A DNA stretch of 64,000 nucleotides from Squalus acanthias (Eukaryota): positions 42,532,001 to 42,596,000 of the forward strand of contig CM059446.1 in NCBI GenBank assembly GCA_030390025.1, given 5' to 3'. Both the position numbers and the translations under genes were made by a program. Positions 2,669 to 29,970 of the stretch are shown in pieces. The notes beneath the pieces are model-generated. The model was not told where the DNA came from. It made no database searches and worked only from the letters and a program-made list of their open reading frames with translations. Position 1 is the stretch's first letter, and every line of letters starts with the position of its first letter.

Positions 2669-2931
2669 CGTTTCGTCTGTCTCTTCAACCTTGTTCATCT
2701 TCATTGCTTTCTGTTTCCCTTCTTGTGTTTGCCCCTTTGTTCTCTCCTCCCCTCCTCCCTGCCCCGGGCTTAAAAATCTCTCTTCTCTAACCTTTTCCAG
2801 TTCTGACGAAGGGTCCAGGACCCGAAACGTTGACCGTTTCTCCTCTCCTTGATGCTGCCTGACCTGCTGAGTGTTTCCAGCATTTTCTGTTGTTGTTTCA
2901 GATTTCCAGCATCCGCAGTATTTTGCTATTG
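2669..2931 (+). mobile_element. Penelope-like element 3' end (family B), single arm, with hammerhead motif
   Basis: Flanked by agtaaatcaatc (2657-2668) and agtgaatcaatc (2932-2943), a 12-bp TSD with 1 mismatch. Homologous to both arms of 51886-52319. A degenerate second copy follows at ~2985-3120. Confidence 0.7.
2798..2836 (+). ncRNA. Minimal type I hammerhead ribozyme motif
   Basis: CAGTT-CTGACGA-A-GGGTC-CAG-GACCC-GAA-ACGT-T-GACCG: catalytic core, 5-bp stem II, palindromic stem III and stem I. Confidence 0.65.
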
Positions 2932-3231
2932 AGTGAATCAATCAGCATCTGAAAAGATAACTTAGAAATTCTGGCTCTCAACTCTGGATTCTGATGAAGG
3001 ATCTGCATCTGAAGTATTAAACTTGGGTTCTGTCAAAGGATTCACACACAAAACTTTACAGTGTACCTTTTCAGATGCTGATGAATTCACTGTGTATCCC
3101 CAGTATTTTCTGTTTTTATTTTTTAATTTAAACTTGTGACATTGCTCACAGACAAAGGCAAAGTGCTTCTCTTCCCGTCACACTTTATATGCTTCTTTTC
3201 CACTCTGATTGTTTCTGTGTTTTTGTTTTTG

Positions 3232-6657: not shown

Positions 6658-8185
6658 ATAAGAACATAAGAAATAGGAGCAGGAGTAGGCCATTTGGCCC
6701 CTCGAGCCTGCTCCGCCATTTAATGAGATCATGGCTGATCTGATCTTGGGCTCAGCTCCATTTCCCTGCCCGCTCCCATAACCCTTCACTCCCTTATTGT
6801 TCAAAAATCTGTCTATCTCCACCTTAAATATATTCAATGACCCAGCCTCCACAGCTCTCTGGGGCAGAAAATTCCACAGATTTACGACCCTCAGAGAAGA
6901 AATTCCTCCTCATCTCAGTTTTAAATGAGCGACCCCTTATTCTGAAACTATGCCCCCTAGTTCTAGATTCCCCCATGAGGGGAACCATCTTCTCTGCATC
7001 TACCTTGTCGAGCCCCCTCATTATCTTATATGTTTCAATAAGATCACCTCTCATTCTTCTAAACTCCAATGAGTATAGGCTCAACCTTTCTTCATAAGTC
7101 AACCCCTTCATCTGAGGAATCAACCTCATGAACCTTCTCTGAACTGCCTCCAATGCAAGTATATCCCTCCTTAAATAAGGAGACCAAAACTGTACGTAGT
7201 ACTCCAGGTGTGGTCTCACCAATACTCTGTACAGTTGTAGCAGGACTTTCCTGCTTTTATACTCCAACCCCTTTGCAATAAAGGCCAACATTCCATTTGC
7301 CTTCCTGATTACTTGCTGTACCTGCATGCTAACTTTTTGTGTTTCATGCACAAGGACCCCCCAGGTCCCTCTGTACTGCAGCATTTTGTAATCTCTCTCC
7401 ATTTAAATAATGATGCGGAGATGCCGGTGTTGGACTGGGGTGGACAAAAATGAGAAGTCGCACAACACCAGGTTACAGTCCAACAGTTTTATTTAAAATT
7501 ACGAGCTTTCGGAGCTGCTGCCCCTTCGTCAGGTTTTACCTGACGAAGGGGCAGCAGCTCCGAAAGCTCGTAATTTTAAATAAAACTGTTGGACTATAAC
7601 CTGGTGTTGTGCGACTTCTCATTTAAATAATAATTTGCATTTTTATTTTTCCTACCAAAGTGGATAACCTCACATTTTCCCACATTATACTCCATCTGCC
7701 AAATGTTTGCCCACTCACTTAGCCTGTCTCTTTCACTTTGCAGATTCTTTGTGTCCTCTTCACACTTGCTTTCTCACCTATCTTTGTATCATCAGCAAAT
7801 TTGGCTACATTACACTCGGTCCCTTCATCCAAGTCATTAATATAGATTGTAAATAGTTGAGGCCCCAGCACTGATCCCTATGGCACCCCACTAGTTACCG
7901 TTTGCCAACCGGAAAATGACCCATTTATCCCGACTCTCTGTTTTCTGTTAGTTAGCCAATCCTCTATTCATGCTAATATATTACCCCCAACCCCGTGAGC
8001 TCTTATCTTGTGTAGTAACCTTTTATGTGACACCTTATCGAATGCCTTCTGGAAATCCAAATACACCACATCCACTGGTTCCCCTTTATCCACCCTGCTC
8101 GTTACATCCTCAAAGAACTCCAGCAAATTTGTCAAACATGATTTCCCTTTCATAAAACCATGCCGACTCTGCTTGATTGTATTAG
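6658..8185 (-). mobile_element. CR1 LINE, 5'-truncated, interrupted by a fold-back insertion
   Basis: ORFs encode GKSCLTNLLEFFEDVT...YLDFQKAFDKV and LYRVLVRPHLEY...RRMRGDLIETYKI. (TTCTTATG)-type tail at ~6658. Confidence 0.9.
7410..7624. mobile_element. Penelope-like fold-back insertion (family A, copy 1)
   Basis: Arms 7451-7534 and 7538-7621 are inverted copies (1 mismatch, TTT spacer). One arm has a ~40-nt extra tail. TSD catttaaataat at 7400-7411 and 7620-7631. Hammerhead motif at 7536-7573. Confidence 0.8.
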
Positions 8186-9856
8186 GATTGTTGATTCATT
8201 ACTTTCCGACATGCTTAGTGGTTCCTCTTTGGTGGTAATCAAGCAGCTTTGCTGAATTTTGATCTGTGCAAATGGTTCATGTTGAGTTGTGGTTTGTTGC
8301 TGTTTTTATGAATGTGGAATTTGAGTCAATAAGAAAGTGAGACACCCGAAAGTATCACCAGAAGTACTAAACAGGAAGTGTGATAGACAGGGACAGACAG
8401 AGAGACTGATAGAAATAGTCTCAGTTGTGCTGTTGTTGGGAAGCATCGAGTAGAAATCAAACGTCTCTTTGCAAAAGGGCTGGAGGAAATTAGAATGAGG
8501 AGATTCTACCTTTGATAGCCCGAATAGAGACTTACTCATTCTGCCTTCTTGGAGAAGTTATACGTTCAGGAACAAGGAAAGTGAATTTTTTTTTTAAATA
8601 AGGGTGTAGTCCTTCAAAAATTAAGAACATTTCCCTTTTCTAATGGGCCATTCACCATACTCCAGCCAAGGGGCTGGGCAGCCATCTTGCTTGTAAGCAA
8701 TATGAAGTGAAAGGGAGACTTTTCCATCAATTTTATTTCCCTCCTTATGGGGAGCATTTTAGCCTCCTTGGCCAGTGTTCAGATTGAACTGGTTGGAAAA
8801 CATAAGCAACCAATACTAATTAATTTGCCTGTGAAAAAATTATCTAATGGGCGTCATGACAGGACACAAAATATAAGTCAGCAATTTATTTCCAAACTGG
8901 TTTGAGCAAAATACAGATTTTCGTGGTTGATGTGTATAATGGTGTTCGGTCACAGAGACATTTTGTAGCACTCTACAACACTGATTTTATGAAATCATGA
9001 TCGTTTCCCAAAATGTACTCCTGACGGGCAAGGCTTCCTGCTGGGAGGATAATTTTGTAAAATTGATCCTTACCTGTTCAGCTTTAAGAAGTTCCATTTC
9101 TTGCTGTTGTGGTGATTTTTTTTGAACTTCCTATATGGAGAATCTAGCATTTCACTTCTGCCTCTTTAATCATCTGGGTTCTTTTGTCAGTGCTCTTCCA
9201 TGTTTTAGTCATCTTCATTGACTCACATTGAGGTGGTACCATTGATTTACCTGCAACTGACAATCTGCAGAGAAACAATTACCCTCTCGTTGACCTCAGA
9301 GTGTGCCTAACAGGAAGGAGCATGTTATTGACCTATTTACAGCAATTGGACTGTGATCTTAAAGCAGCAGTCTAAGTTACACAGAGCTTTACCTTAGCAG
9401 CAGAAACTATTAAATGGACAATGCTCCTGTCCTTACAAAACAGCATATTATCCAATTTAGCATGAGCAATAACATGGGGGAGATACATTAATATTTGTTG
9501 AAAATAATTAACTGTTTTCTCGTGAGCTATGCCTATTAGCATCTCAAAAATCAGCATTTTTATATACGAAGGGAATTTGCAAAAGGCATAGGAAAATCAT
9601 TTTTTGACTGTCTATTTAATAAAACCATCAATAAAATGGTTAAAACAGGGGCAGAAAAGTTTTGCATTTGTTTCAAATGCTTCCTTTTCGTTAGGGGTAG
9701 TTCATTTTTTGAAGTGATTCCCATAATTGTATACTCCCATAGCTGCATGGTATTCTCTGCATATCATAGTACATTGGATTCCTATCCTCTTTCCCAGTAT
9801 CGCTGTTCCTCTTCTTCCTTCCAGTGTCATGTGTTACATTTTGTACTCTCAACACC

Positions 9857-10553
9857 TCTCTTCTCTTAGGCAGTCCCTCAGAACCGAGGATGACTTGCTT
9901 CCACACTAAAAATGAGTTCTCAGGTGACTGATGAGTCCAATGCGGGACCTACAGTCTCTGTCACAGGTGGGGCAGACGGTGGTTGATGGGGCAGGTGGGT
10001 GGGGTGCCTGGGTTGACGTGCGCTCCTTTCGCTGTTTGCGCTTGGCTTCCGCTTGCTCCCGGTGAAGAGACTCGAGCAATTGGACTGTGATCTTAAAGCA
10101 GCAGTCTAAGTGCCTTCCCGGATGCTTCTCCTCCACTTTGTGCGGTCTTGGGCCAGGGATTCCCAGGTGTCGCTGGGGATGTTGCATTTTTTCAAGGAGG
10201 CTTTGAGGGTGTCCTTGAAGCGTTTCCTCTGCCCACCTGGGGCTCTCTTGGCATGTCGGAGCTCCGAGTAGAGCGCTTGTTTTGGAGAGTCTCGTATCGG
10301 GCATGCGGACGATGTGACCCATCCATCGGAGCTGATCGAGCGTGGTCAAAGCTTCGATGCCGGCCTGAGCGAGAACACTGATGTTGGTGTGCCTATCCTG
10401 CCAATGGATTTGCAGGATCTTGCGGAGGCAGCGTTGGTGGTACCTCTCCAGTGCTTTGAGGTGCCTGCTGTACATGGTCCATGTCTCTGAAGCATACAGG
10501 ACGGCAGGTATCACTACTGCAACACCATTCAACCTTTTGCTGCAGACCATCAT
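9857..10553 (-). mobile_element. RTE-clade LINE 3' fragment
   Basis: ORF 9906-10571 encodes AVVIPAVLYASETW...LERYHQRCLRKIL...QLRWMGHIVRM and ends in CPTCDRDCRSRIGLISHLRTH. Frameshifted, with an (AAGAG)-like tail. Confidence 0.85.
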
Positions 10554-11221
10554 GTCATCGCTGTAATCCATTCACTGGGTCACAACAGCTCTTTCTTTTT
10601 TGCACCAATTTTATCTAATCAAGGTAAGCCAGAGTATATTGGATATATTATAAAAAGCATAGCATGATTGGGCGATTTGTTACTAATGTGTGCCTGTTGG
10701 TATTCAACTTGGACCCCAAGATCATTTTAGGACTGCATACAACCTACCATTATTTTATATTTAGTTAATATGCTATTTCTGTCCACGTTAATAGATTTAG
10801 GAAAGAATACTAGAGGAAAAAAGCATCCATTCTTTGCAAGGAATCAGTATACAAGCGTAGACTACAACATTTCGTTGGGTTTGAATTATACTTTGATAAA
10901 AATAGGTCTCATTTGGTTACTATTTCAATACATCTGGGACTGTTCATTTGCATTATAATCCAACAGAATTTAAAATCTGCTGGCAGAACTGCCATGGAAT
11001 GCTGTACCAACCTGCTGTGGAATGGTAGAATGTTGGTGATTTGTTGCAAAACGACTGCTGGTCAGTTCAGTGGGAATGAAGTAACTGAGCCGGAGCTAAG
11101 TAGTTCTCTACATCAGTGTGAGGAAGAGGAGATAGAAAGCAGTGCTGCCCATACATTCTCAAGCTGTTCTTTTCAGCCAATATCGGCAGAGCAAGTTGCT
11201 TTTCTGCCTTACTTGAGGAAT

Positions 11222-11522
11222 AAAAGTGAGAAGTCGCACAACACCAGGTTATAGTCCAACAGTTTTATTTGAAATCACAAGCTTTCGGAGCGGCTGCTCC
11301 TTCGTCAGGTGATGGATGCTTTTTTCCTCTAGTATTCTTTCCTAAATCTATTAACGTGGACAGAAATAGCATATTAACTAAATATAAAATAATTCTTCAC
11401 CTGACGAAGGAGCAGCTGCTCCGAAAGCTCGTGATTTCAAATAAAACTGTTGGACTATAACCTGGTGTTGTGCGACTTCTCACTTTTGTCCACCCCAGTC
11501 CAACACCGGCATCTCCGCATCA
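11222..11522. mobile_element. Penelope-like fold-back insertion (family A, copy 2) with captured local DNA
   Basis: TSD ttacttgaggaat at 11209-11221 and 11523-11535. Inverted arms carry hammerhead motifs at 11275-11312 (-) and 11397-11434 (+). The 82-bp spacer is the reverse complement of 10749-10830. Confidence 0.85.
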
Positions 11523-12074
11523 TTACTTGAGGAATGGAAGGGACTAAGCAATGGAGAAAAATACATTTTAGAAATGATAATACTAAAAAGAAAAAAAATC
11601 ATGGAGGTACATTGTGTTGCAAAAGCCATTTCTTGACACTTCTAATGCGCTTCCAATTACTATTGTCACATTTTAGTGATGCTCACAGAAGAACTTTTCC
11701 TGAGCCAGAGATATGGCATTGAATGTTCAAGTGTGACCGCTGCCGTTAGCAATTGGAGAGTGGGGAATGAGATTTTTTAATGATATTTCTGGCTCAGGTG
11801 ACATTGCTGACTTGGAGCTGGTCACTGCACGTGTACATTTGACTTACTTCATTCCACGAGTGGGAGTGTGGAATCAGTAAAAATGATGTATGACAATGTA
11901 GAAATTGCAGAGAGGAGTAGCTTTTATACCCCATTTGCAGTGACAAACAATGGGACATTTAACAAACTAATAATTTCCCAATTGGATTCTGGTCATTAAA
12001 AGAGGTGGCCTCTAACCCAGGTCAATGCGGAGACGGGTGGATTCCAGTTCATATAAACCGAAAAGTTATGCCTA

Positions 12075-12934
12075 GGACCTGGAATTTGTGGTTGTACCGA
12101 TGGCAAAACTGTCAGCGCTCACCGTCATTACTGTGTAAAACTGACAGCAACTTCTGGAGTACGCACGTGCGCATTAAACACGGAACTTAAGAAATAGGGG
12201 CAGGAGTAGGCCATTTGGCCCCTCGAGCCTACTCCGCCATTCAATAAGATCATGGCTGATCTGATCTTGGCCTCAACTCCACTTTCCTGCCCGCTCCCCA
12301 TACCCTTGACTGCCCTATAGTTATAATCCGGAAGTTGCTGTCAGTGATACTCTGCTCCTCCACAGGGTGCGCTGTTGCAGTCCTCGCAGATGCAATCAAC
12401 ACAGAATCAGTGATTTGACGTGAACTTCAACTTTTTACGCACTATTCTCGCTGTAAAAACCATTGAAAGAGTTCAGCCTTGTAGAATGAGGTGTAACTAA
12501 GTTTTTAATGGTGTACTAAAATCATAATTACTGCTGAACCACCTCTCTGGCCCTGAAATACCAATTTTATAAATGTGGACTGTTTTATAGTTTGTTGATA
12601 TTTCAGCTTCTACCTTAATCCCATGTCCCAATCTTTATTTCACTTTCGTAAAATGATTAAAAAGTGAATTATAATCTGTGCTTTTTACTACCTGGTTTGC
12701 TGTCTGAGAATTCTTCAATCTGATTGGCTGCTCAGCCTGCTTGGTGACTTCACTGATGTCAGATTCCCTATAGATGGTGCCAGATTGAAAATCACATCGG
12801 AGTGGGGGGGGGGGGGGGGGGGGGGGGGCGGGGGGGAAACGACGCTCTAGAACCCGCTAAATTTTTGTGAGCAGCTTTCTTCGAGGTCAGCGGCGAGCAC
12901 CATCCCTTCGCCGCTGACCGCAAAATCCAGGCCA
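12075..12934. mobile_element. Non-autonomous DNA transposon (MITE), interrupted by a CR1 3' end at ~12188-12322
   Basis: Imperfect TIRs ggacctggaatttgtggt / accgcaaaatccaggcc and an internal inverted repeat tgacagcaacttc / gaagttgctgtca. Superfamily uncertain, possibly PIF/Harbinger. Confidence 0.55.
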
Positions 12935-12951
12935 TTGTCACATTCCAGCAC

Positions 12952-13216
12952 TAGGGTTGCCAACTTTTGCTGGATGTTATCCTGAAGGTTTCATCACATG
13001 ATTTTATGCCTCCACTGCCCCGCCCAGTCAGTCAAAGACTTTTACCCCCAACCTCCAATATTTTTAAAATTAATAAACAAGTGTTCAAAGAAAATTTAAT
13101 AAAACATTGTTTTTAATGCTTCCGATTTTTCTCCCAGGTTGCTCACAGCAGTGTCTGGGAGATTAATCTTCAATGCCTGGAAGCTCCAGGGCAATCCTGG
13201 AGGATTGGCAACCTTC
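12952..13216. mobile_element. hAT-family MITE
   Basis: TIR TAGGGTTGCCAA / TTGGCAACCTTC and 8-bp TSD TCCAGCAC (12944-12951, 13217-13224). Confidence 0.8.
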
Positions 13217-13739
13217 TCCAGCACACAAACAACTTGCCTGACCATACCGCAACTGTTCCCTCATGTTTTTGCAGTTTTGCTCAGTTTCTGTATAAATGTA
13301 ATCTACAAAATGAATATGAAGTCTTAAAAAGTACATGAATGGGTCTGCAAAATGCATGCAAACATTTTGTGGTGTGTAGGAAGACAGAATTTTGTTTTCG
13401 TTGACTATTTTGAGTAATGATGATTGTGTGGTAAAGGGCCATAATGCATTCTGGGCACTTTACGTGGAACAATAGGTGGAAATAAACAAGTTTTGTTTGC
13501 TGTGGGTGTGTATGGGCATAGTTTACACTTGCTATTAGCTATGAGGAAATGATCGGCTTGGAATCTAACTGAGGTCAACACCTTTGCACGTTAAAATATT
13601 CCAGTAACAAAATTAACAGCATATACAAATTTTCAGACGGTCTTGTTGAAATGGTTATTTCTAGCTTCTTGACTCAGATATAAAATATAAATTCTGTTGT
13701 GTTGATGTGAGCAAAGTTCCTTGCTACTGTGGGCATAAC

Positions 13740-14485
13740 TAAATGCTAACGGGTACAATTTTAAAGGGGGTGCAAGAAGAGAGACCTGGTGGTGCCTGTG
13801 CACAAATTTTTGAAGGTGGCAGGACAGATTAACAAAGCAGTTAATAAAGCATATCCTGGGCTTTATAAATAGAGGCAGAGAGTACAAAAGCCAGAAGTTA
13901 TGCTAAACCTATATGAAACACTAGTTCGGCCCTAGCTGGGAGTAGTGTGTCCAATTCTGGGCACCACACTTTAGGAAGCATGTGAAGACTTTGGAGAGGA
14001 TACAGAAGAGATTTATTAGAATGGTTCAAGGAATGAGGGATTACAGTTACGTGGATAGACTGGAGAAGCTGGGGTTGTTCTCCTTGGAGTAGAGAAGGCT
14101 AAGAGGAGATTTGATAGGTGTTTATTTACACTATCTAAACCCTTAATAATTTTAAAGAGAAACTGTTTCCAATGGCTGAAGGGTCGATAACCAGAGGGCA
14201 CAGATTTAAGGTGATTGGCAAAAGAACCAGGAGGGGAAAAACTTTTTTTTTTTATAAACGCAACGAGTGGTTAGGATTTGGAATACACTGCTTGATAGGG
14301 TGGTGGATAGATTCAATAGTAGCTTTCAAAAGGGAATTGGATAAATACTCGAAGGAGAAAAAATTGCAGGGATATGGGAAAAGGGCAGGGGAGTGGGACT
14401 AACTCGATTGCTCTTCGAAAGAGCCGGCACAGACTCGATGGGCCGAATGGCCTCCTTCTGTGCTGTACTATTCTATGATTCTATG
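13740..14485 (+). mobile_element. CR1 LINE 3' fragment
   Basis: Encodes EGSITRGHRFKVIGKR...FKRELDKY, with a CR1 3' UTR and (TTCTATGA) tail. Confidence 0.85.
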
Positions 14486-17400
14486 GTGATACCCTATTAC
14501 CTGTATGAAGTGCCTTGGGATGTTTATTACATTAAAGCACAATAAGTTGTTTCAAACTATTGAAGCTTTTGGTAGTCCTTGGGGGGAAAAAAGAATTGGA
14601 GATTTTGACTTATACCCAAGTCCGCCAGTTACGGACCCGGAGTAATGATATTTTCTCAAGGTAAGCATTTCATTTTTGTAGCCTCCGAGTAAGATTGCCA
14701 AGCCAGTGACAGGTTTGTGATGCAGATCCACTGGACGAAGACTCCCAAACTTCATTTCATATGGAACCCACAGAGAGGATACCATCTGTGTGGGCTAGAA
14801 ATGCAGTATGCTAACCTAATTCTGCTAAACTTTTAAAAATAAAAATTGAATGTATTCTGCTTTGATTTTTCATTTCATTGAAATGATTGAGGGATTGATT
14901 CCATTGGTATTGAAAGCATGATTATCCTCCACTTACAAGGATGTTGATTCATCAGAAGCTGTTGCCCTCTAGAATGATCAGCTACAGAACCAAATCCTTA
15001 CCCAAACAGTGTTTCCACTGGATTTGTCCATGTGAGGATGAATGATGTCTAGAACAGGAGGTAGATTTGAATTATGACATACAATTACATTATAGGGAAA
15101 AACAGCTCAATATATGGGGACATACTTTCCAGACCAGAATGTAGTACAAAATTTTTTTATTGGTTTTTGAAACCATTTACAAAACTTCAACAATATCTGT
15201 GAGCACTTTCAATAAGAAAAAAAAACTAAGCTGAAATGCTATTCCAACATTATTGCACTACTGATTTTTCCAGCAGTACAACAGACAAACACCATTAAAA
15301 AAAACAGATTCTACACTAAATAAAATTGTGGTACAGGCAAGCATTACCTTGTGATGTAGTAAGGAGTTGGGATTTGCTGTTGTTTGTAGCTTCACTTGAT
15401 GGGCATTAGTTATGACTGCTGAAACCAGTTCCTTCTCATCAGCTCATATTCATTAACGGCAATTACTTTGCAAAAATATATGTATAGCAAATTACTGTAG
15501 GAACTTCTTCCACAATAGTTTACCAAATACTAATTCTCAAAATCAACTGAACAAAATTGAAAACTGAACATATTCAACAATGTTTCTAAGGTGAATTAGT
15601 AAACTTCAAAAAGGTACATAACGTGTAATGTGTATAACTGTGCATCCCTGGCCATTAAAGAACCAGATTCACTTCAGCAAAAAGTGGTTACAGGAATATA
15701 CCTAGCACTGTACAATATAATTCAACAACACACATGCACACTTGTGATCATTTATTAACATGGTGAAGCAAATTGAACTTTAAATTTTCATCCTGTTTTA
15801 ATATTCTCATACAAGAGAATCAAGTAAAACAATTATCTCATTGAGATCAATGTACATTGCTACATAAAACAATCAAGATCTGTCATTTTGCAGATGACAT
15901 TTCACTTTTTTGTATATTGACTCATTTCCTAAAATCTTATCAAATTAAATCTTTGTTGCCTGTAACGATTACCATTTGTCCTAAGAGATGTGCCAGGCCA
16001 GAGACTCCCTTTAAGCATCTAGTGCAAAAGATAAACATCAAAACGTCCACTGAACACAGAATTGAATATGAACATCTATTTTAAAATGCATCTCCAATTA
16101 TACTTAAGGTGCAAACATATGTCTGACACTTTTGCTGCAACGTTTTATTATGCAGTGTTAAGTTCAGCACTGATTCAGCTTGACCAAGCAAATTCAGCAT
16201 GTGCTCCATTGACCAGTTCTGGTCTACTAGACCACAACTGTCAACTACTCTGCGAATCAGTCATCTGTGAAGCGTTAAAAATTGACGCTGCTACTAAAAC
16301 AATGAATCAGAATAGAATTTGTTCATCCACAAGTTATCCTGAAAGGACCCAACTTATGGGAGGTTACCGAAATTATTATTATTTTTTTTTTTTTAGTGCT
16401 GCCTCGTGTACTCATTAGAAAAAAAGGATTATCTTAAAAAAACACAATTACAAGACAGTTACAGAAAATTAGAATTTAAGATTTCAAAAGTTTTTAATGG
16501 GTCAATATTATGAACCTTTCAATTGACCCATTAGCTAAAACACACACACACACACAAAACAACTGCTACAGTTTCCGAGAAAACATTTAAAATCTCTTAA
16601 AAACGGAACAGAATTAAAATCAAACATTGTGGTGCAGAGTCTGGTACTGCATGTAATCCCTCCCTCTAACCACCTATACAGTGCATTACCTTCAAAGCCC
16701 AATCATCAACTAGATTAACGCGTTAATCAAAATAAAGGATTTCTTCCTTTTATTATGGTAGATCTCGATGTCAATTCTAACAGAATGCACTGGCCATTTC
16801 AAGTCCTTTGACCACTGGGCCCAGCAGCAATGCTAATTTCTCCTGGCTGTTTAGCCTGTTACTTCAAATACCAACTTTAGAAAAGCATACTGCATGTGCT
16901 AGGATAAATTTGTTTCTCCTCCAAAATATTTTTTAAAAATTAAACACTTCTCAACATAACCAAAAGAAGTGACAGTAGTCATCTTTTAGTATCAAATTAC
17001 CAAGTTACCCCAAGATAAAAAGCAAACTTAATTTTATCAAATGTTATCAGCCTTTATATACTGAACTGTCAATCATGAGGTTCTGACCAGAGACATAAGC
17101 TGCACTGGGCTGGAACTTCTCTCCCAATTAACTAGTGAGAATGTCAAAAGATGTACAGAAGGCTTTTTTCTATTATTGAGTGAAAATGACTGATGGGTTA
17201 ACTGTATAGAAAGAAAAAAAATATTTATCTGACATAGCAATAAGCAAGATTTCCACTATTCTATTAGAAACTCTTTAGTCTCTTGGACAAGAAAAGGTAT
17301 TTTGCATATATTCATGAGAGGCCTGTTCTTATCTTGAGGTGTGAACCATTATGGAAACTTCATTCTTCCTAAAATTGTCTGTAAATTGGTTAACTGGTTA

Positions 17401-17517
17401 CTGATCATATTCCTTTACATAGGAAATAAATTTATCAATAGATTTTTTAGACACCTTAGTAAAATTAGAGCCTAGAAATGGCTGTGTGCAGTACTAGCAT
17501 ACAAATACTTAAATGTA

Positions 17518-17873
17518 CAGGGAACTCTCGTTTAAACGGCACCTAAATATCCGGAATTCTCTAATAACCGGCAGAATTCATACTCCGAAAACTACAGTAT
17601 ACAGTCGTTTTAAGTTTTGTTTTACTGTTAAGTAATTAAAGAGTTATGGATTACCCTCAACTGGCATTACTGTACTTAATCAAGCATCTTCCACCATCCA
17701 TTTAACACAACATTCTGCAGGGGAATACCCAATTATACTGCGCATTTCTTGATTTTTTTAAATTTTTGTTTGTTAAAAATAGCCTCGGTAGATATACCTC
17801 TCCGTTATCCGGAATTTTTAATCAACCGGCACCATCCCGGTCCCGTCGGTGCCGGATATGAAAGAGTTTCCTG
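17518..17873. mobile_element. Tc1/mariner Tigger-like MITE
   Basis: TA|CAGGGAACTCTC ... AAGAGTTTCCTG|TA. The interior is the reverse complement of part of 36811-37377. Confidence 0.85.
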
Positions 17874-20864
17874 TATTTGTACGACATTCCAGTCGGCTGT
17901 TTTAGTTGAAATGTCAGAGGAATGTCATATAGAGAAGTTCAGTGCTCAGACACTAATATCACAAACAGTAATTTATAGGCTTAGGTTTTTTGTATATATT
18001 AGTGAAATTTTAATCTAGAAATTGTTGTGATATTAGTGTGTGAATGTTTAATGCATTCATACATCATTCCTCTATCCATCGTTCAACTCTCATTAAGATG
18101 AAACTAACAGCAGAGCTAAAACAACTATTGTTGACCAATGCGATGTAATTAGTAACAATTTTGAAATCCATAGCCTAAACCACCCAGCTGAAAGATGGGC
18201 AATCTGGAGGCTGAGGAAAGGTGACAAAAATAAGTACTAGTCTTCTAAGAGGTAGAAAATACCCACATATTTTAAACAAAAAACTGAAAAGCTAACAGCC
18301 TAGAAACACTGGGTAGTGCAGACAGAAGAATTCACAAACAGGTAACAGAAAGTAACGTGAGAAAAATATGATGATCCAGTGAGAGCAAGAATAAGCCATG
18401 GTTTGTTCTTAGAAATAAACAATTTCCTGAAATTTGGTATGTGTGTTTAAATGCTTTATATAAGAACGGTTAAATTTAAGTTTTTTTTGTTCAAGTCCAT
18501 TATTGTAAAGATGAATTAACATCGACAAAACCTTTAAATTATGCTCTTTTTCCCTTCAGTTAAAAATAATGTGGTTAAAATATAAACATTTCAGATTCTG
18601 CATTTGACCAATGCAATGTAATTAGTAATAATTTTGAAGTCCATAGCCTAGTCCATCAAGCAGTCGACTGCAGATATGTACCCAAATTCTAAAGATCCTT
18701 GTTCTCAGCCTTGCTGTTAGTGGATTAAGAAAGTAAAAATATGATGCCACCTTGCCTGCCTTCTTCCTTGGTTGGAGAAGGATATCTGGGGAGGGAGGAG
18801 GCAAAGATGATACACAATGATAGGAAAGCAAAAAATGAATTTTAAAAAATATTTATAAAAGTCAATCACTAACTTTAATTGGTTAAATATATATTTTGTT
18901 GATTCATGATTCCAAAGTACAGAGTTGAAGCTATAGCTTCAGAAATGAACAGGTCTTGTGCACAGAACTGTTTGTTCAAATTATTAGAAATGTAATTTAT
19001 TAAATCTCGCAAAAGACAAAATATGAAAAACAGAAAGGATTAAGACTCCTGTACTACACATGTCTATTCCTGCAAACTAGTTTTCCCAGTTTCTATATGG
19101 AGTTTCGAAATGCAATGCAAGGATGACAGTTCTCCACTGGTCATTATTTCTGACGTCTGTAGTCACACTCTTCATGATTGACAATTTAACACGCATTAAT
19201 CATAATAACTGAATCAGAACTGGCAAATTGTTTTTAAAATTACTGTTTGAGAAGTATTGGTTAAAAGAAACAGGAGGAACACACCTTTCATTTCATCATC
19301 ACACACAACCCAGTTGTTTCAAGCGAGATTGGGAAAAGATAATCAATGGCCAAAAGAAATTTAATTTCATGATAATACTAACTATAACTGCACTTTGACT
19401 TTGAGGTAAACAGATAAATTCCACTGCAAGCCTAGATATTATCTAGTATCACAGACTGTCATCTTCATCAAGTATTTAATTTTTCCCTTAAAGTTTATGT
19501 AGGCAGACAAAATTCAGTTTATGCTGTCTTTGACTCATTAAGAATTTTGGAATTAAAGACTGCATTTTGAAGATTTGTTATAAATCAGAACGGAGTGATC
19601 AGCTGCTCAGATGGCTTCACTTGGAACAGAAACACTGAATTAGCAATGAATAAAAAAATTAAAAGTAGATTAAAATAGAGCACCATCTTGTGGGCACACA
19701 CGTGCATAAATCCAATGGTAAAATAGCTCAAATAGAGATCCACAGCACAAGCTCTTGTTTCAAAGTTGATTTTTTTTTTAAAATACTACAATTTGTTTTT
19801 CTATATACCCATTTTTCATAAATTTTGGATGGCTAAAATTTGCTGTTAAAAAGGATGTGTGTGTTTATAAGCATTAGTTTTACTGCTCACTGCTAATTGT
19901 AGAGATGATGTTTGGAATTCCATGTGCCCCCAAATTAAGATCTGAGGGGTAAAAAAAAGTTTAAAACTACAAGAAAATTTGGTGCCACATACCAGCAATC
20001 CTGTAGAATTCAAAATTTCAGCTTGTGCACAATTGACATTTTATGCATATGGTTCAATTGTGATTAGGATCCAAATTTATACCAGATTTGTTCTTATTTG
20101 TTTCCCAATTCTTATTTTCATCATTATACATACATTTAGTCAGAACAGTTATTGTGGAAGGTGAATTTCTTCACCACCTTAGTTATGCACGTCAGGTAGC
20201 AAAATGGTTCTCTATAACCCACTACATCACAGGGGTATGGAGCAAGCACCTTATCGCAGTACAAATAGGCCACCGTAGAATCAATAAAATTCAGATAAAG
20301 GAAATTTTCCAAAATTGCTCTAGAAAGGTACTGGGAAACATGACAGTTCCAGGTGGTTCATAAAGTCTTGGTTCAGTAGCAAAATTTGGTAAAATTATGT
20401 GAAAATGATTATTACAGTAAATCATTAAGATTTATACAAGTATTTGTTACAAACCACTGGAGATGTCCCAGTAACATTACACTTCTGAAATATCTCAGTT
20501 CAGTAAAGCTAGAATTCTGGCAAAGTGGTCTTTTTACAAGTACTTTTTCAAAATTCACATCTTTTCTTGGATGTTTTACAGACTTTATATGTGGAAAAAA
20601 GCTATTTTATCAGTATGTTTTTTTGAATTTAATTTTAGTTTGTTGACCATTTCTGTTCAAAAATATGCTTAACAATTGATTCAGGTGACCAATAATCTAT
20701 ATATTATTAGGAGATATACATCATTAAACAGACTGTTTGCAATAATTAAAGACTGGGATAAAATTACAGAAATTTACTATACATTGACAGTTATAGAATT
20801 TTGTTATTTTCTTTACCTTTCTGATTTTCTCCCCCTTATCCCACTTCTCTTTAAAGGTGGTGAC

Positions 20865-21017
20865 CAATGTTCCTTGTGAGCTGCGCTTTGTTCTGCGCGG
20901 CCTGTTTCTTTTAATGCGCGGTCCCTTTAAATTTCTGCGCATGCGCGGTATTTACAACGTAAAAGCCGGTGAGCGGCCTGCGCGGCCGCATGCACATGCA
21001 CCTTAACGGGAACATTG
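20865..21017. mobile_element. hAT MITE (153 bp)
   Basis: TIR CAATGTTCC / GGAACATTG, perfect 8-bp TSD GTGGTGAC (20857-20864, 21018-21025), CpG-rich interior. Confidence 0.85.
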
Positions 21018-23560
21018 GTGGTGACTTGTACTAGGTTACAGTTCCATAGTGCACTGAAGCCCTCTGGTTATCTTAACCAAATGAGCATTCTTCAGGTGAG
21101 AGCTTGGAGTCAGGTGGGTTGTTCAACTGTGGGGCTTGTCAGTCAAGCTCAATCCTCTCTTTTCTTGTAGTATTCTTAAATCTACAAGTTCCAGTGATTG
21201 CTCAGTGGATAAATGCACCACAAGATGTGGTACAGAACTTTACAAATCAAAAAGGTTTTATGTTCAAATTAGCAATTTGTGCTGAATCAGCCACTCTCAG
21301 TTAAGATGGAGAGAAGGGGAATATTGAAATATACATATGTACTTTCAGCAGAAGTCAGTGATAGCAATCTGCAGTCAGAACCCTGTCTGATTTTCCACTC
21401 CACCCACAAAAGCATAGAATTTTACATCACCTGAAGCCATTCTGCCCGTCTTGCCTGTGTCAGCTCACTGAAAGAGCTATCCACACAGCCCCATTTCCCT
21501 ACCTTTCCCCACTCCCTTCCAAATTTTTCTTAGACAATTATTTCTCCACTTCCCTTTTAAAAACTATTCTGGATTCTCTTTGCACCACTGTTTCTGATAG
21601 GGTATTCCAAGCCCCACATAGAATTACATAGAAATTACAATACGGAAACAGGCCATCATCCCAACCTGTCTGAATTGTTAGGATCACACTGTGTGTCGCA
21701 TTTACCCGCTAAGCAATCAGGGAAGATTTTAATAAAGATACATACTCCAGGGAGAAATAAAGTATGTAAATTATACCAGGGCATAGTTAAAATCAATTCC
21801 AATTTGTTAGATTAAAAATGAATATTAACCTTATTTGATCTTAAAGAAATGTAATCCTTTTAGGAAGAAGTTTGAGTTTATCCACCAACAATCCTCCGTC
21901 ATATCCTTTAACCCACTGCCTGTTGCGTTGTGGAGTGCTGTATGATACTGCCCAGGAAAATATTATTCCATCCTTCTAGTGGCGTATTCTGGGATGAATA
22001 AATAAGCTATTTCTTAGATTGCTTCGCATTTGAATGCTTTAACAAAAAATATCCAAACCTTTATCACAGAAGTACTTTTTTGAATCTAAAGCCAGACATT
22101 TTGATATATTTCCCTCTCTTTAGGGAAAGCGATTAAAATCAACTTCTAGTAAAGGAATTTAAATTTAAAAGATATATTACAGGATATTTTTTATATAACA
22201 AAGAAATATGGGTGTAGTATTGATTTTTTGCCATTAGAGGTAGCCACTGATTCTCCTAAATACTATACTCTCTTTTAGGAAGGTTACGAGGGGTTTAAGT
22301 CCCACTGTCCACTATTTTTAGTGCGCTGGTTAATAGGTTCATGTTCAGTTCCAGTCTGCACTATTTTAACACAGTTGTTAACCTGCTTAAAATAAATGGG
22401 TTAACACTCCTGTTAAAATACTGCAGAGGAATTTAGCACGTACAAGTTCACCGGTGCAATAAAAATAGTGCACAAGGGATAAAACAGCTAGTGGAATAAT
22501 ATACGACTGCGCATACATTACCAAATCACTATGCATGAGGTGCTGATGCCTCCACGTTAAAAGACAAACATTACATTGCTGACAATTGAAAAGAAGTGTA
22601 TCTGACTTAATTGTCACATAACTCTCTAAATGTCAAAGGCAGATATCTGCACTCTTTACCGCAGTTTCTCAGTGTTTCCCAGTTATTGTTTTATCCTTTA
22701 AAACCAGTTACAGGCAACCTGGAATTTTGTGGAAAACATCGGATATTTGAGTGATATCATGAATGAGGAGTGCAGCCCACAGTTCCCACTCATGTCACTG
22801 GAGAGCTGCTTCAGTTTTCTACATAATGCTTATTTCCAGATGGCTCCAATGAGTAGTATTAAGCAGAGAACAAAATAACGAAGGGTGACCGAGATACACC
22901 AGTAGGTGCATAAATATTGCCTCTTATAACAGAGTTATGGAAAATTCAGTAGAAACACTTAGTAAATTGGACGCATTAACTTAATGTGCAGCCAACAAGA
23001 TCTGCATTCGCAGTAACTAGTTTTTTTTTTAAAAAGCCAGTGATGCAGGATGGAGGCCTAGGATTTTATCTTAAAAGACCCTGGGCTGAAATTATAGTCA
23101 ACTAAATCATATGGTTGATGTTAAAGAAGTTAGGAGGGCAATGAGTGAAAGTGATTCTGTACACGAGATAAAAATTGACCTAAACTGAGCAGGATTTTAT
23201 CTCACACTGTTGATCTTAAAAAGGCTCGAACTGAATTTACATTTTACTGCAGCAATCTCTACCTACTGACAGACAGCCCAGCTTGTAAATGAACCTAATT
23301 CCATAAATGGACAACATACACACACATTTGCTTATATTTGCGGTAAACCATGCAGGATGATGTCAAATACTGGCACCTAAAATGAAAGAATTTTGGACAC
23401 AAGATTAATGAAACTTAAGTATGCAGAGCAGTTAGTTTTCTCCTGGAACACACTTGTTCAGGAACAAATGTTTCTCTAAAGGCAGGCACATCTGTTAGGC
23501 CAAATATGATGTGTCAGAAAATGAAATTTGTGTGCTATATATTTAACAGTACTCTTTGAT

Positions 23561-26500
23561 TTAACCTAACATTTCAACTGTAGGATGATCTTTACTTTCC
23601 ATCCAGTCAAAACCTGAAGACTGCATGGAGTTCATGGATTCATTACAGATTTGCTGGAACACTGCATCATCATTCAGTTCCTCCAGTGTAGTATCAACAT
23701 CTTGTCCCTGTTGTTTACTCGGGTCAAACAGCAGATTTGTATCTAAAGTGCTCAGATCGTTTATGCTGCCTGAAAGATCAGAGGATAACCTGAGATCACT
23801 GGAGAAATCAGAGGCAACATTATTAAGATCTGACGGTACTTGACCAACCACTTGCTGGTTTGGCTGTAGGCTGTCTTCAGCCAGAAAGTCTTTGACTGTA
23901 TTGTTGAAATCCAATGATTGCTCTCTGGTTTCTGTTTGTGCTTGATTATCCTCAGAAATATAACCCATCTGATCATTATTGATGTGTTTTGTGAGGTAAC
24001 TAGGCTTCTGGAATTCAAAGACAGAAGAGCTTGAATTAATCATTGGTTGCTGGTTGGCACTACCAAAACTAGATGTCGTCTCCAATATCTGAGTAAGATT
24101 CATTCTTGCTGTATAATTGGAGGGCAAGTTGTTTATTCCTAGACCTCTTACTGCATCATCACTGTCTGAATCAAGTTTGCTTAACAACACATTTGTAATT
24201 TTCTTAGTGTTGGTTTGCTTCTGGTAAGATGGGAAAGGAGTCTGCATCATAACAGACAAAGGGACAGATTGGCTTCGTTGAGCCATACTGTTGGCACTGT
24301 TATTTGAAAGATTGTTAACAAAGGTGTTGTGAACCTCAGGTGTTACTGGGCTTCCAAAAGATGCCAAACTTGTCCTTGGCAGGTTAATCACTGGACCTAG
24401 AGTACTTCCACTAAGATTACGTTGACGATGAACAGCAGGACTGACACTGCGACACCTAAAATTATTGATTAATGAATGTATTCCTTTGTTGTCAAGAGGT
24501 GCTGGAACTGCAAAGCCCTCCTGCTTATTGCCATTAGCCATAGAAGCTCCCTGGTGTGATACAGGTGAAACTGGAGTCAAACGACCCAACTGAACATCAT
24601 GATGTCGAGACTGTAACTGCATGGCATTATGGTGATATGACTGCATCGTTTGTCCAGGAACAGCAAAGGCATGTGGTTTTCTAAAGTGGTCCTCAGCCAG
24701 TTCCTGATAACTGGGAAGAATACCAACACCACTGCTGGAAACTGCAGAGTTGCTTACTCCAGTGTTGTATCCATTATTCATCCATTCAATTTTTGTTTTG
24801 TCTGGGTGAGTGGCCATAGGCCTCTGCATTGGTTTAACAGGGCTGCTGGAAATGACACTAGCATCCTGGTATGTCATGCTGGAGCTTATTGGAGTAAAAG
24901 CAAAAGGGTTCCTGCATTCAACAGGGCTAGGAGGCACACTACTACTACAGTTCGAATGAGGAGTGCCAATTGGTGTATGTCTGCTGCTGCCAAGAGCGCT
25001 ATCTACAGGTGTTGTTTGAGCCATTCTGGAACTAGGACTTGAACAAGTTTGAGAGCCAATCATTTCTGATGTAGGTGTTGGATTGGGTGTAGGAGTTGGC
25101 GTTGGTGTAGGAGTTGGGGTTGGAGTGCCACTGCTATGGATTGGATGATAGAATTGTCCAGCTTGATGAGATGACATCAGTGTGCCATGACCTACTGTGG
25201 AATGACTATGAGTAGGTATTCCCAAACCAGTTCCATAACCAACATTCAGGGACATTTGCTCTTCAAATAATACTAATTCTTCTACAATACTGTCCTGTGT
25301 GAGATCTTCATCAAATTGAAAGTAGTTTTCATTGGTTTGTGAACCTGAAGGTGTGAGCTCCATCAAATTATCCTGCAGAGGTAACTGGTTTGACGACTGT
25401 GCTTGATTTAGTCCTTGCAGCTGAACTGAAGTAGAACCTTGTAGCTGGTTCTGAGCCTGCATTTGCTGATCATAAGACTGCTGATCCAACCCATTACATT
25501 GTACTGGCTCCCACGCAGACACTTGAAAATCAATGGTCCCCGAATTCCCAATCATATTAGCATTTATAACTTGCTGCCTTTCTGTGTCAGTCAAAAAACA
25601 CTGGTGATTCTTTTTGATATGCTGGATGTCAGTATGATTAGCGATCAGTTTTGTACTTGTGTTTCCTTGCAAACTGAATGAACCCATTTCCAAATCTGTA
25701 GTTTTGTTTTCCCGAAAGGTAGACGTTTGTTCTGCAGCAGTCTGAAGGCAATCCAGGGTTACTATTTGAATATCGGATGAAGGGTTTGCTAATATACGGG
25801 TTATTCCTGTTGTATTCAGTTTAACAGTAACTGTACTGGGTGCCTGAATCATTGCTGGTGTGTTTTCACTTTTTACTAGTAAAGCTGCAGATGGTTTTGG
25901 AGATGTCATTACTGCAGTGCCCTGGCAGGCCTTCTGATGTTCTGCACTACCTGAAGTATGTTCTAAAAGCATAGCTTTCTTCACAGGAGGCACCTGTGGT
26001 TCAAATGCTGAATTAGAGGGAGAACGTTTTCTTGGACTTTTTGGGCACATCCCATTGTCTTTATGAGACCTGGCAGTATCAGTAATGGATTTTGAATTAA
26101 TGCTGGTGCTAGTGAAATTTGAAGCGGAGGAAATAGAAAAAGCATTTTGATTATTTCCCACGATTGAAAAGGCCAGATTTTCACTGTGTACAAACTTGCC
26201 TTCATTTTTGGTCTTTTTTCCTTCCGTTTTCTGACCATTACAGACTTTTGCTGTCTTCTCATTAGCTGTTTTCCCATTTGATATCTTCACTTTTGTGCTA
26301 GCTTCACTATTACTTTTCTGTCCACATGGAGAGGAACCAACAGTTCTTCTAGGATCCTTCAAGCGACTTGAATGATCTTGGCACAGAGTCTGCTTTTCAT
26401 CACTTGATATTGCTTCATGTTCAGACTTGATGACCTCAGCAGTAGGTGTAGTTGTGGCACTACTTGTTCTGGATCCTCCAGCAGGAAGGCAAGAAGTTGC

Positions 26501-26929
26501 GCCAACTCTCAATGTTGGACCAGTTTTTAATTTGTCTGCTGTTGCCATACTGTTGTTTGCTGATGACGTGGGTTTGGGAGATGCACCAGTGTTAGGTGGG
26601 AGAGATATTGTCGTCATCTTCACCATATTCAGGGAGCTAGCGTGGGATGTTCCAGAAACAACAGTTTTTATTGGGCTACCGGCCAAGAGTACTGTAGTTG
26701 GAGAGCTAAGAGTAAGTGTGCTGGTTGAGGCTGGTTTAGGCAAGATTTGATGGTAGCGAGGTCTTGAGCGATCATTGTGTGGACTGGCAGGGACATTCTG
26801 GACAGTCTTCTGTTGCTGCTTGACTGACTGCATGTGTTGAGCAACAACCTGAACGTTCAAAGGAAGAACCTTGCTTTCTGATGGACCTAACGGACTTGGT
26901 GATGTCATCATCTGCCTGCTTCTTTGCAT
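23561..26929 (-). CDS. RFX7: RFX7 terminal coding exon (exon 10), 1122 aa; the ORF-track Met is internal
   Basis: Acceptor TTTTTCAG at 26937-26930. Encodes [11 protein letters not shown] repeat, [28 protein letters not shown] and the C-terminus [12 protein letters not shown], all characteristic of RFX7. TAA at 23563-23561. Confidence 0.97.
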
Positions 26930-27562
26930 CTGAAAAATTCAACGTAAAAGGCCTATAAAAATTATATTTAAACATAAGAACGAACAAACTCCTCAGAGTG
27001 AAGCAAGTGTTTTTTCTTGCACTTCACATCAAATGTAAACAGAAGACTGAACTCCCAACAGTTTTGCCATATATTACTTTCCTGTAATGTATGGCAGGTA
27101 ATGAATTACAGTAAATAGGATAAACGCATTCAATGGAACTACGGTAAAAGTATTCTATTCTTATTTACAGAGCTAGTTTCAAAATTAAAATTACTGTACC
27201 CTCAGTTATTGAAAATATCTCAGTTAATTACATGAACTGAATTCCATGTGTGCCACCAACAATCTTTTTCCCCCATTTTAATTTTCTCCGTAATTCATAC
27301 ACAAGTTTCTGCAGTGTATCATATTCAACCACTTTTTGGTAGTTTTACTGATAATATTGATATTGAATTGAAACATTAGAAATAGCTTTTATCTTGTGTC
27401 GTGGAGAATTTGGGGGGGGGGGGGGGGGGGGGGGGGGCGGGAGTGCAATGCCCTGCATCACAGAATGATACAGATATGGTTGTTAGTCATGAATTTCCTG
27501 CCGAATTCGTAGTAATACTGGGGCAATAGGAGGTGTACATAACAAAAGGCCAACCATTTATC

Positions 27563-27757
27563 CATGATGTGGAGATGCCGGTGTTGGACTGGGGTGGACA
27601 AATGTGAGAAGTCGCACAACACCAGGTTATAGTCCAACAGCTTTATTTGAAATCACAAGCTTTCGAAGTCACCTGACGAAGGAGCAGCGCTCCGAAAGCT
27701 TGTGATTTCAAATAAAGCTGTTGGACTATAACCTGGTGTTGTGCGACTTCTCACATT
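27563..27757. mobile_element. Penelope-like fold-back insertion (family A, copy 3)
   Basis: TSD caaccatttatc at 27551-27562 and 27758-27769. Inverted arms; hammerhead motif at 27669-27705 (+). The minus arm is truncated inside the motif. Confidence 0.85.
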
Positions 27758-27989
27758 CAACCATTTATCAACAGAGTGCACCACCTTCCCTCTCCCCTAC
27801 AGCATGCCTGCAAGCAATCAACTAGACTCGGATCGGAAGAGGCCTAGGAACAAGCCAAAAAATAACAAGGAAATAAAAACAAAAATTGGAAATTAAAAGA
27901 AATATTGTATTTTTTTTCCTACTTCAAGACACTGTTAAATATTCATATTTGCTGGTGGCACTAGTAGTATTTGTTAACAAAATAAAAGA

Positions 27990-29665: not shown

Positions 29666-29970
29666 TTGGATAGGACTGGGAACGGTTGCCACCACAATGC
29701 CAATGGTAGGTTGAGGAGAAAGCAGAGCAGGGCTTCCATTGGGGATGTTGGCCACTCCCCCAACAGTGGCACCTTCTAGTTTCTTCACTTGTTGCTCGCC
29801 TGGTAGTGGAGATTGCAGTTTCTGCTCTTGTTGTTTCTTCAGTGTATTTTGTTGAATTTTACGCTGCAACTGTTGCTTGGCATCTATTGATGGGGAAAGC
29901 AGAGTCTTCACCTGGGGCTGAAAGGAATTGCTTTCAGCCATGGGCACAAAAGCAGAAGGTTGTTTCACTC
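29666..29970 (-). CDS. RFX7: RFX7 exon 9 (305 bp)
   Basis: CAG acceptor 29973-29971, GTAGGT donor 29665-29660. Encodes [23 protein letters not shown]...[10 protein letters not shown]...VPSPIQ. Phase is consistent with its neighbours. Confidence 0.95.

Follow-up and report, generated by a model that had tools for sequence, protein, structure and literature searches.

How three short insertions, each consisting of two inverted arms around a hammerhead ribozyme motif, came into being is the question raised by the RFX7 locus of Squalus acanthias (GenBank assembly GCA_030390025.1, contig CM059446.1, positions 42,532,001 to 42,596,000, forward strand; these 64,000 nucleotides are called the window, and all positions are counted from its first letter). 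A first-pass annotation of the DNA letters had assigned the three insertions (family A, copies 1 to 3) to a non-autonomous retrozyme-like family, moved by a Penelope partner, whose mobile unit is roughly ribozyme-bounded. Our analysis indicates instead that they are probably heavily 5′-truncated insertions of a Penelope-like element (PLE) in the layout published for such elements. As the simplest account of their structure we favor that two cDNAs, one primed from each target strand, would have been joined head to head.

Architecture of the family-A insertions

As outlined in the following list, every insertion contains a long and a short arm in opposite orientation, enclosed by a target site duplication (TSD). 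The long arm of copy 2 is the reference unit, and unit positions refer to it.

7400..7411: copy 1, left TSD, 12 bp, from the exact repeat and the empty-site alignment; its last 2 nt also match the tail end
7412..7534, minus strand: copy 1, long arm; hammerhead with C3 at 7532, H17 at 7503 and a stem I of only 2 bp; AATAAA; body-tail helix 7477-7485 with 7428-7436; tail about 7412-7445
7535..7537: copy 1, 3-nt centre, of which 7536-7537 are probably part of stem I of the short arm (compensatory U-A pair)
7538..7619, plus strand: copy 1, short arm; hammerhead with C3 at 7540, predicted cut after 7569; the arm may reach 7624 via 5 nt common with the TSD
7620..7631: copy 1, right TSD
10749..10830, plus strand: host template of the copy 2 spacer, matched nowhere else in the window
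11209..11221: copy 2, left TSD, 13 bp
11222..11312, minus strand: copy 2, short arm; hammerhead with C3 at 11308, H17 = U at 11279
11312..11393, minus strand: copy 2, spacer, an 82-bp exact inverted copy of 10749-10830; 1 nt (11312) is shared with the arm
11394-11396: copy 2, 3 nt of unmatched origin after the spacer
11397..11522, plus strand: copy 2, long arm and reference unit, 126 nt; hammerhead 11397-11434 with C3 at 11401, predicted cut after 11430; AATAAA 11440-11445; body-tail helix 11448-11456 with 11497-11505; tail 11488-11522
11523..11535: copy 2, right TSD
27551..27562: copy 3, left TSD, 12 bp
27563..27665, minus strand: copy 3, long arm without the first ~22-25 nt of the hammerhead; helix 27631-27639 with 27582-27590; tail ending in ATG; the arm may reach 27668 with one mismatch
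27669..27757, plus strand: copy 3, short arm with full hammerhead, C3 at 27673, H17 = U at 27701; it may begin at 27665, giving an 8-bp stem I
27758..27769: copy 3, right TSD

Searched with the unit (11397-11522), the window returned exactly these six arms at E ≤ 2e-34, the next match having E 0.07, and nhmmer gave a concordant result. Between the TSDs, copies 1, 2 and 3 measure 208, 301 and 195 bp, respectively. The duplications are 12–13 bp long and 67–92% AT, the insertion ends carry no A-tract, and a flanking 12-mer repeat arose by chance at a fraction of 0.0002 of 20,000 random window positions. Copy 1 lies within a LINE-like (long interspersed nuclear element) fragment. Once the insertion and one TSD were removed, this region and a paralogous LINE fragment near 54,050 aligned gap-free over the insertion site, indicating that insertion and target duplication are genuine. 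An assembly artefact was ruled out by the exact TSDs, the empty-site paralog and the three independent loci. All sense frames of the family-A arms were interrupted or short, with no open reading frame (ORF) left.

Each arm adjoins the TSD with its 3′ end. The short arms end at unit 84–91 (91 in copy 2, 90 in copy 3, 84–89 in copy 1) and the long arms at unit 125–128, so that in 3/3 insertions a tail of about 36–43 nt is present on one side only, the range being set by microhomology. In these respects the first-pass annotation proved largely accurate: separate 12–13 bp TSDs, exact in 3/3 cases, and the PLE-type arrangement of inverted arms, tail and TSD were recovered for all three insertions. 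Its lengths and limits held for copies 2 and 3, while those of copy 1 had taken in bases common with the TSD; its one-sided tail was found in 3/3, with the wider range given above in place of ~37–40 nt; and the sequence CTTCTCA, at which the short arms were said to stop, does not agree with the measured ends.

Family A displays an inverted copy, a one-sided tail, a hammerhead upstream of the tail and AT-rich TSDs without poly(A), that is, the architecture by which a PLE is recognized. According to the literature, an inverted 5′-truncated copy with a 30–40 bp tail at one end is the standard PLE layout (PMC8557442, PMC3846280), and it is shared by Penelope, Naiad and the rotifer PLEs, as are head-to-head palindromes (PMC8557442, PMC3846280, PMC2377424). 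However, the TSDs of rotifer PLEs comprise 8–10 bp versus 12–13 bp in family A, and the pseudo-long terminal repeats (pLTRs) of these elements flank long bodies, whereas family A consists of two arms only, with one centre taken from local DNA. Paired opposite-strand minimal hammerheads from truncated PLEs have been known since 2014 (Cervera and de la Pena, PMC4209133), where the likewise dual motifs lie ~100–700 bp apart; that study deals with Schistosoma and a survey of fish, coelacanth, frog and reptiles, and in the parts of it covered here junctions, TSDs and a fixed 5′ stop are not analyzed. New here are the origin of the copy 2 spacer, the arm asymmetry of copy 3 and a body-tail helix at matching spacing in two unrelated families.

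Hammerhead, 5′ stop and body-tail helix

A hammerhead descriptor modelled on PMC4209133 was run over the window, with 100 Markov sequences as controls. At the loosest setting eight loci were found, five in family A and three in a second family (family B), which is unlike family A in sequence (its stem III reads ACGU) but is arranged in the same way as regards arms, tail and TSD:

51886..52319: family B, two-armed copy; long arm with tail on the minus strand, short arm on the plus strand; hammerheads with C3 at 52017 (minus) and 52224 (plus)
51875-51885 and 52320-52330: TSD of the two-armed copy, 11 bp
2669..2935, plus strand: family B, solo long arm; hammerhead with C3 at 2803; 8-bp exact TSD 2661-2668 and 2936-2943

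With a stem I of at least 3 bp, seven loci were retained, compared with a control mean of 0.03 (maximum 1). An additional nucleotide separates positions 9 and 10.1 in all eight relaxed matches, stem III is palindromic in every one of them, and G10.1-C11.1 is present in seven; these three features are the ones reported for PLE minimal hammerheads (PMC4209133). In each of the five family-A cores the additional nucleotide is an A, stem II measures 5 bp and the palindromic stem III (15.2–16.2) reads AGCU; G10.1-C11.1 is likewise present in all five. The core itself (CUGANGA and GAAA boxes, UH cut site) is present in 5/6 arms, and a stem I of at least 4 bp in 4/6. The hammerheads described in PMC4209133 resemble family A in the extra nucleotide after position 9, G10.1-C11.1, the palindromic stem III and a stem I of 4–5 bp, but possess a stem II of 7–8 bp instead of 5 bp. 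In the lineage of copy 1, a two-sided change in stem I and a change from A-U to G-U in stem II keep both stems; these stem-preserving changes, present in one lineage, fit selection on the hammerhead fold in the source. A DNA alignment of all eight hammerheads was out of register for family B, and pairs were tabulated by motif anchoring.

In the finished insertions each strand holds one sense ribozyme, the two being located on opposite strands, and folding of the whole insertions gave a stem I probability of at most 2e-14 in 5/5 cases. Since the ribozymes lie on opposite strands and stem I is predicted to be absent, the finished copies should not cut. The fold-back hairpin is thereby predicted to lock the ribozyme off, and all three insertions are probably inactive fold-back remnants. 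PLE hammerheads are reviewed as cleaving as dimers (PMC6765202), and low or absent self-cleavage is common among such hammerheads (PMC4209133; bioRxiv 10.64898/2026.07.22.740005). A cofold of two ribozyme fragments resulted in an extended stem II duplex and no double hammerhead, which is neutral, as the program cannot represent the active dimer.

All six arms span the predicted cut site, although a cleaved 5′ end would fall at unit position 35. Consequently, the template was uncut, or it was cut and then re-ligated. A cut-site-bounded unit was therefore rejected, the arms starting upstream of position 35 in 6/6, and the corresponding first-pass proposal fails on the same six arms, which hold sequence from both sides of the cut. 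For the PLE of the green anole (PAc), ribozyme mutants insert normally in vitro and unprocessed RNA is the main substrate (Frangieh et al. 2024, PMC11167929).

Five arms start at unit about −3 to +3 and one at ~23–26, where the 3′ foot of stem II lies or slightly within it. Under uniform truncation over 60–200 nt (an assumed range), the chance of this clustering for three independent insertions is 0.0005–0.03. Regarding the ribozyme, the first-pass annotation was borne out in the minimal type I hammerhead with palindromic stem III (seven loci against the control mean), in the motif, AATAAA and the predicted cut after 11430, and in the clustering of arm starts, 5/6 falling into a span of about 7 nt at the ribozyme 5′ edge; a full core is, however, present in five arms only, since the long arm of copy 3 lacks the first ribozyme half.

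Family-B arms reach roughly 45–175 nt further upstream than those of family A, and the 5′ stop is therefore family-specific. Candidates for it are a transcription start (a short run-off product would be expected from initiation at the 5′ copy of the start sites), a roadblock, a splice boundary or a source RNA of ~130 nt. In D. virilis the intron, located 46 nt after the start (PMC2377424), terminates at the 5′ end of helix I (PMC4209133). Family B has a run resembling a 3′ splice site at the corresponding place, while in family A an AG at the hammerhead 5′ edge was found in one ambiguous arm only, and a sigma-70 promoter scan has no bearing on vertebrate DNA. In a test for a circular template, the bases upstream of position 1 varied among the arms and showed no consistent continuation into the tail end (2 nt in one arm).

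In the family-A long arms the cut site lies 91–94 nt upstream of the end, and in the anole PLE 82–89 nt upstream, counted by eye (PMC11167929). In the anole PLE, the protein cuts either strand and extends it, synthesis beginning at two neighbouring internal sites that define the tail (PMC11167929). Between body and tail, a helix of 9–10 bp was found in 3/3 family-A long arms, beginning 18 nt after the cut, with its tail half located 9–10 nt into the tail and 16–19 nt before the end. Shuffling gave p values of 0.003, <0.0005 and 0.0075 for this helix, which was noticed post hoc in arms that are not independent. The family-B copy at 51.9 kb, unrelated in sequence, has a 9-bp helix at the corresponding distances of 20, 12 and 17 nt (p 0.0065). 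In the anole RNA, a 7-bp helix was found by eye that begins 21 nt after the cut and whose end precedes the reported start region by 11–18 nt; possibly it belongs to the stem-loop drawn in PMC11167929. The predicted body-tail helix, flanked by both start sites, is probably the protein-recognition element.

PAc, which belongs to the Poseidon PLEs, is similar to family A in several further respects: the hammerhead is followed within ~90 nt by two tail-defining start sites of the reverse transcriptase (RT), the targets are AT-rich, the RNA substrate is uncut and the helix is similarly placed by eye (PMC11167929). For the cutting and extension of both strands by PAc, a family-A counterpart is presumed. 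In contrast to family A, the PAc protein starts inside the hammerhead and tandem repeats are formed (PMC11167929), whereas in family A no ORF is left and the arms stop at the ribozyme 5′ edge.

Origin of the inversion and its rival explanations

The three centres all differ. That of copy 2, whose inverted host-DNA origin the first-pass annotation had overlooked, is local host DNA and matches the reverse complement of 10749-10830 in 82/82 positions; the template ends 378 bp before the left TSD and is the only match in the window. For comparison, the longest chance match in 150 random tests had a median of 8 and a maximum of 63. As the spacer was copied from nearby host DNA, it was made at this locus; most simply, the left cDNA end would have folded back on its own strand before joining. 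Snap-back of cDNA onto nearby DNA is documented for R2 (PMC11371274), and templated genomic inserts as well as twin-primed inversions with TSDs of 12–18 bp are reported for L1 (PMC11702581). In copy 3, the short arm holds ~22–25 nt which are missing from the long arm, an asymmetry favoring two separate cDNAs over one folded-back cDNA. Furthermore, both outer junctions are element 3′ ends at an exact TSD in 3/3 family-A insertions and in the one two-armed copy of family B.

The arms of one insertion differ at 1/87, 2/91 and 0/65 positions (3/243 in total, two of them CpG transitions). Between the copies, an arm pair shows 4–7 differences when copy 1 is compared with the others, and 2–3 when copy 2 is compared with copy 3. 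Evidently, both arms of each insertion stem from one source lineage, since the differences are low within and higher between copies; later homogenisation of the arms may alternatively account for their likeness. At least two source lineages, and probably three, were active. Both the private variants of copy 1, present in its two arms, and the low divergence since insertion had been recognized in the first pass. Relative to the LINE paralogs (60–90% identity), the family-A copies appear young. Substitution rates of cartilaginous fish are slow.

On the preferred account, the endonuclease of a PLE (RT plus GIY-YIG) would nick the two strands 12–13 nt apart, as suggested by the TSDs. Judged from arm orientation and ends, one 3′-OH would prime reverse transcription at the tail-end start site and the other at the second start site, ~36–43 nt upstream; two start sites with two-strand extension are demonstrated in vitro for the anole PLE only (PMC11167929). 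At the short-arm junction, microhomology amounts to 5 nt in copy 1 and 4 nt in family B and is absent from copies 2 and 3; it may help at the second start site and is not required there. The host sequence 7390-7411, before and at the TSD of copy 1, resembles the short-arm end, with 5 nt in common. From the arm sequences, the template would be uncut RNA, unless cut and re-ligated. Both cDNAs would halt near the ribozyme 5′ edge, an RNA 5′ end or a roadblock being candidate causes, and end-joining would then unite them head to head. For copy 2, the 82 nt of neighbouring host DNA would first have been added to one of the cDNAs by copying; this sequence is observed, and its timing is presumed. The finished copies would be dead ends with one sense ribozyme per strand in a hairpin, and the source would be a tandem pLTR-bearing locus elsewhere in the genome.

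L1 twin priming and R2 snap-back (PMC11702581, PMC11371274) share with family A an inverted insertion, an intact TSD (12–18 bp there) and cDNA copying nearby DNA. In L1, however, annealing of the second primer relies on microhomology, its internal site varies and the resulting parts lie end to end, whereas family A has two fixed starts, arms with almost complete overlap and no microhomology at 2/3 short-arm junctions.

Several results weigh against the reading as a truncated PLE primed on two strands. Pfam detected no GIY-YIG domain in any of the 348 window ORFs of at least 55 aa; the matches obtained were two to RVT_1, both in LINE-like repeats, and two to RFX. Exact-pattern scans of bacterial and archaeal genomes, run as a check for host contamination, and blastn of the unit against plasmids and phages returned 0 matches, and translated arm frames had no match in a search which is weak, as it could catch only spurious ORFs reading through the pLTR. 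A PLE parent was thus found neither in the window nor in these collections, none of which covered the rest of the host genome, and PLE identity, at the level of EN+ PLEs (Penelope/Poseidon or Neptune) as a whole, rests on architecture rather than on homology to a named element, because no parent was found. Among eight Rfam matches at E ≤ 1 there was no hammerhead, likely because minimal forms are not modelled there; the matches to miRNA precursors, mraW, SscA and sX13 fell below the gathering score and were rejected as hairpin artefacts. A single arm folded no better than its shuffles (z −1.28), and the helix of the second family-B copy is weak (7 bp, p 0.047, pair probability 0.04). Plain random truncation fails to account for the clustered 5′ ends. 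The template switch in copy 2 is marked by merely 1 nt of microhomology, and both the copy 2 spacer and the copy 3 asymmetry could reflect later repair of a fragile palindrome centre. Finally, the mechanism is derived from three family-A insertions and one case in family B.

A rival explanation assumes a different source, namely a dedicated non-autonomous RNA of ~130 nt, linear or a tandem-retrozyme circle, carrying only the ribozyme and an RT-start module and moved in trans by a PLE protein. This explanation, which we regard as possible although unlikely, is compatible with two-strand priming and differs from the PLE reading in the source. It would account for the stop of 5/6 arms at unit about −3 to +3 (chance 0.0005–0.03), for a boundary that is constant across lineages differing at 4–7 sites and, with family-B arms ~45–175 nt longer upstream, for a family-specific stop; moreover, the window contains no PLE ORF, and PLE-derived non-LTR retrozymes with monomers in vertebrates, one chondrichthyan included, are reported (bioRxiv 10.64898/2026.07.22.740005). 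Like family A, non-LTR retrozymes are short and non-coding, with a type I hammerhead, a relation to PLEs and a TSD of more than 4 bp (PMC7229834; bioRxiv 10.64898/2026.07.22.740005), but they form head-to-tail repeats of ~150–450 nt with one ribozyme per unit, which are processed to circles. Family A, in contrast, consists of head-to-head inversions, in which two sense ribozymes on one transcript are impossible, and none of the nine tandem arrays of the window involves the unit, nor were partial-tandem direct pLTRs found there; the first-pass label of a retrozyme therefore finds no head-to-tail arrangement in the window (0/9). Retrozyme monomers, reported at ~150–450 nt, have hammerheads of the canonical type, the minimal type being ascribed to PLEs (PMC7229834), and the consistent run into the tail end that a circle would predict is not seen in the variable bases upstream of position 1. 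The tails of known PLEs sit at the ORF start (PMC11167929, PMC3846280, PMC2377424), and the copy 3 tail ends in ATG, a weak point; equal clustering would also arise in an autonomous element from a transcription start or from a roadblock to the RT. An autonomous PLE is the more likely source. Likewise possible although unlikely is the full version of this idea, in which family A would be a minimal parasite of the PLE machinery, a linear or circular RNA of ~130 nt composed only of hammerhead and two-start-site helix, whose every integration is primed on two strands and ends as a dead fold-back. If true, the fixed 5′ stop would correspond to the end of the RNA itself or to a single lap around a circle, the parasite would be smaller than the retrozyme monomers of the papers cited here, and its copies would form a large natural record of PLE inversion and tail formation.

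The inversion itself could also be produced from one cDNA, which starts at the tail, folds back and copies itself, with trimming by endonuclease or end-joining leaving the one-sided tail. Such a course would directly explain why the arms share private variants and why copy 1 has a loop of 3 nt; cDNA snap-back is known in R2 (PMC11371274), self-priming has been proposed for head-to-head palindromes (PMC3846280) and the tail has been ascribed to endonuclease resolution (PMC8557442). Nevertheless, we consider this improbable: a fold-back copy cannot exceed its template, yet the short arm of copy 3 has ~22–25 extra 5′ nt, which requires a later deletion, the short arm of copy 1 probably holds 2 extra nt, and no reason is given for the same short-arm end in two families. 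Very improbable is a fold-back or Mutator-like (MULE) DNA transposon, that is, a miniature inverted-repeat transposable element (MITE) with long terminal inverted repeats (TIRs) that moved as a whole. Inverted arms, TSD, missing ORF and comparable size would suit it, but the ends are asymmetric owing to the one-sided tail and vary by several nt, the centres differ in 3/3 and one is local DNA, the hammerhead is structurally conserved, and the same layout recurs in an unrelated hammerhead family including a solo arm with its own TSD. A TIR DNA transposon or MITE was rejected, the termini being neither symmetric nor fixed and the internal sequence not common to the copies. A tRNA-derived short interspersed element was likewise rejected, as ARAGORN found no tRNA head.

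As such, the elements are to be expected in the genome of a cartilaginous fish and agree with published PLE anatomy; their value is mechanistic. The formation of PLE inverted ends and tails is called undefined in PMC8557442, and the steps after first-strand synthesis are described as awaiting validation in PMC11167929. Two-arm insertions expose both priming junctions and the central join, and a genome-wide junction table could separate two-strand priming from self-priming without bench work. As the RNA signal by which both starts are positioned, the body-tail helix is a candidate that can be mutated. The copy number is probably high, given three insertions of family A and two of family B within 64 kb, and many intronic perfect hairpins would follow from it. 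A family this abundant is probably already catalogued in Repbase, Dfam or the subscription literature; our literature search, with Repbase, Dfam and most subscription journals outside it, found no report of family A or of two-strand priming as the origin of PLE inversions. In a limited library, 'Penelope' combined with 'twin priming' gave nothing on PLE mechanism by title or abstract, which is no proof that the idea is unpublished. A link to the ancient human 'Eulor' hairpin repeats was not found in the part of PMC5753468 covered.

Host gene and further features of the window

The window represents the RFX7 locus, the DNA-binding exons of RFX being found on the minus strand by Pfam on the window ORFs. 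Protein matches gave the following exons:

23561-26938, minus strand: RFX7 exon
29630-30058, minus strand: RFX7 exon
40755-40919, minus strand: RFX7 exon
45318-45527, minus strand: RFX7 exon

The long last exon is 88% identical to RFX7 of Callorhinchus milii and 84% to that of Narcine, and other named vertebrates reach at most 73% among the 120 matches listed. From the splice contexts, copy 3 is located in the last intron of RFX7, and copies 1 and 2 lie past the stop codon. Copy 3 is predicted to contribute a perfect hairpin of ~65 bp to the RFX7 pre-mRNA. Its long arm is the sole family-A arm in sense within this pre-mRNA and also the one without the ribozyme core (n=1).

In family B, all three hammerheads are preceded by a branch-point-like motif, a pyrimidine run and a CAG ending 2 nt before C3 (2787-2800 and 52208-52221 on the plus strand, 52020-52033 on the minus strand). 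These are the only three such motifs in the window; the motif was defined post hoc and the copies are related. The run recalls the D. virilis intron ending at helix I (PMC4209133). Next to the solo copy lies another family-B-like copy (about 2985-3121, nhmmer E 6e-5), which is old and degenerate and whose hammerhead has decayed.

An open frame of 221 aa (9906-10571, minus strand), situated shortly upstream of the host template of the copy 2 spacer, shows a weak C2H2 zinc-finger match at its end (E 0.003) and is probably a LINE 3′ end. Compared with the LINE copy at 7.8 kb, the region 54214-54249 contains an internal inversion of ~33 nt, visible as a minus-strand match inside the collinear alignment. 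A dispersed repeat, possibly a MITE, occurs at 17509-17879, 36806-37386, 43817-44192 and 45178-45261, with segments of ~70–125 bp at 83–95% identity in both orientations. At 3974-4052, a perfect 19-bp tandem repeat is present in 4.2 copies.

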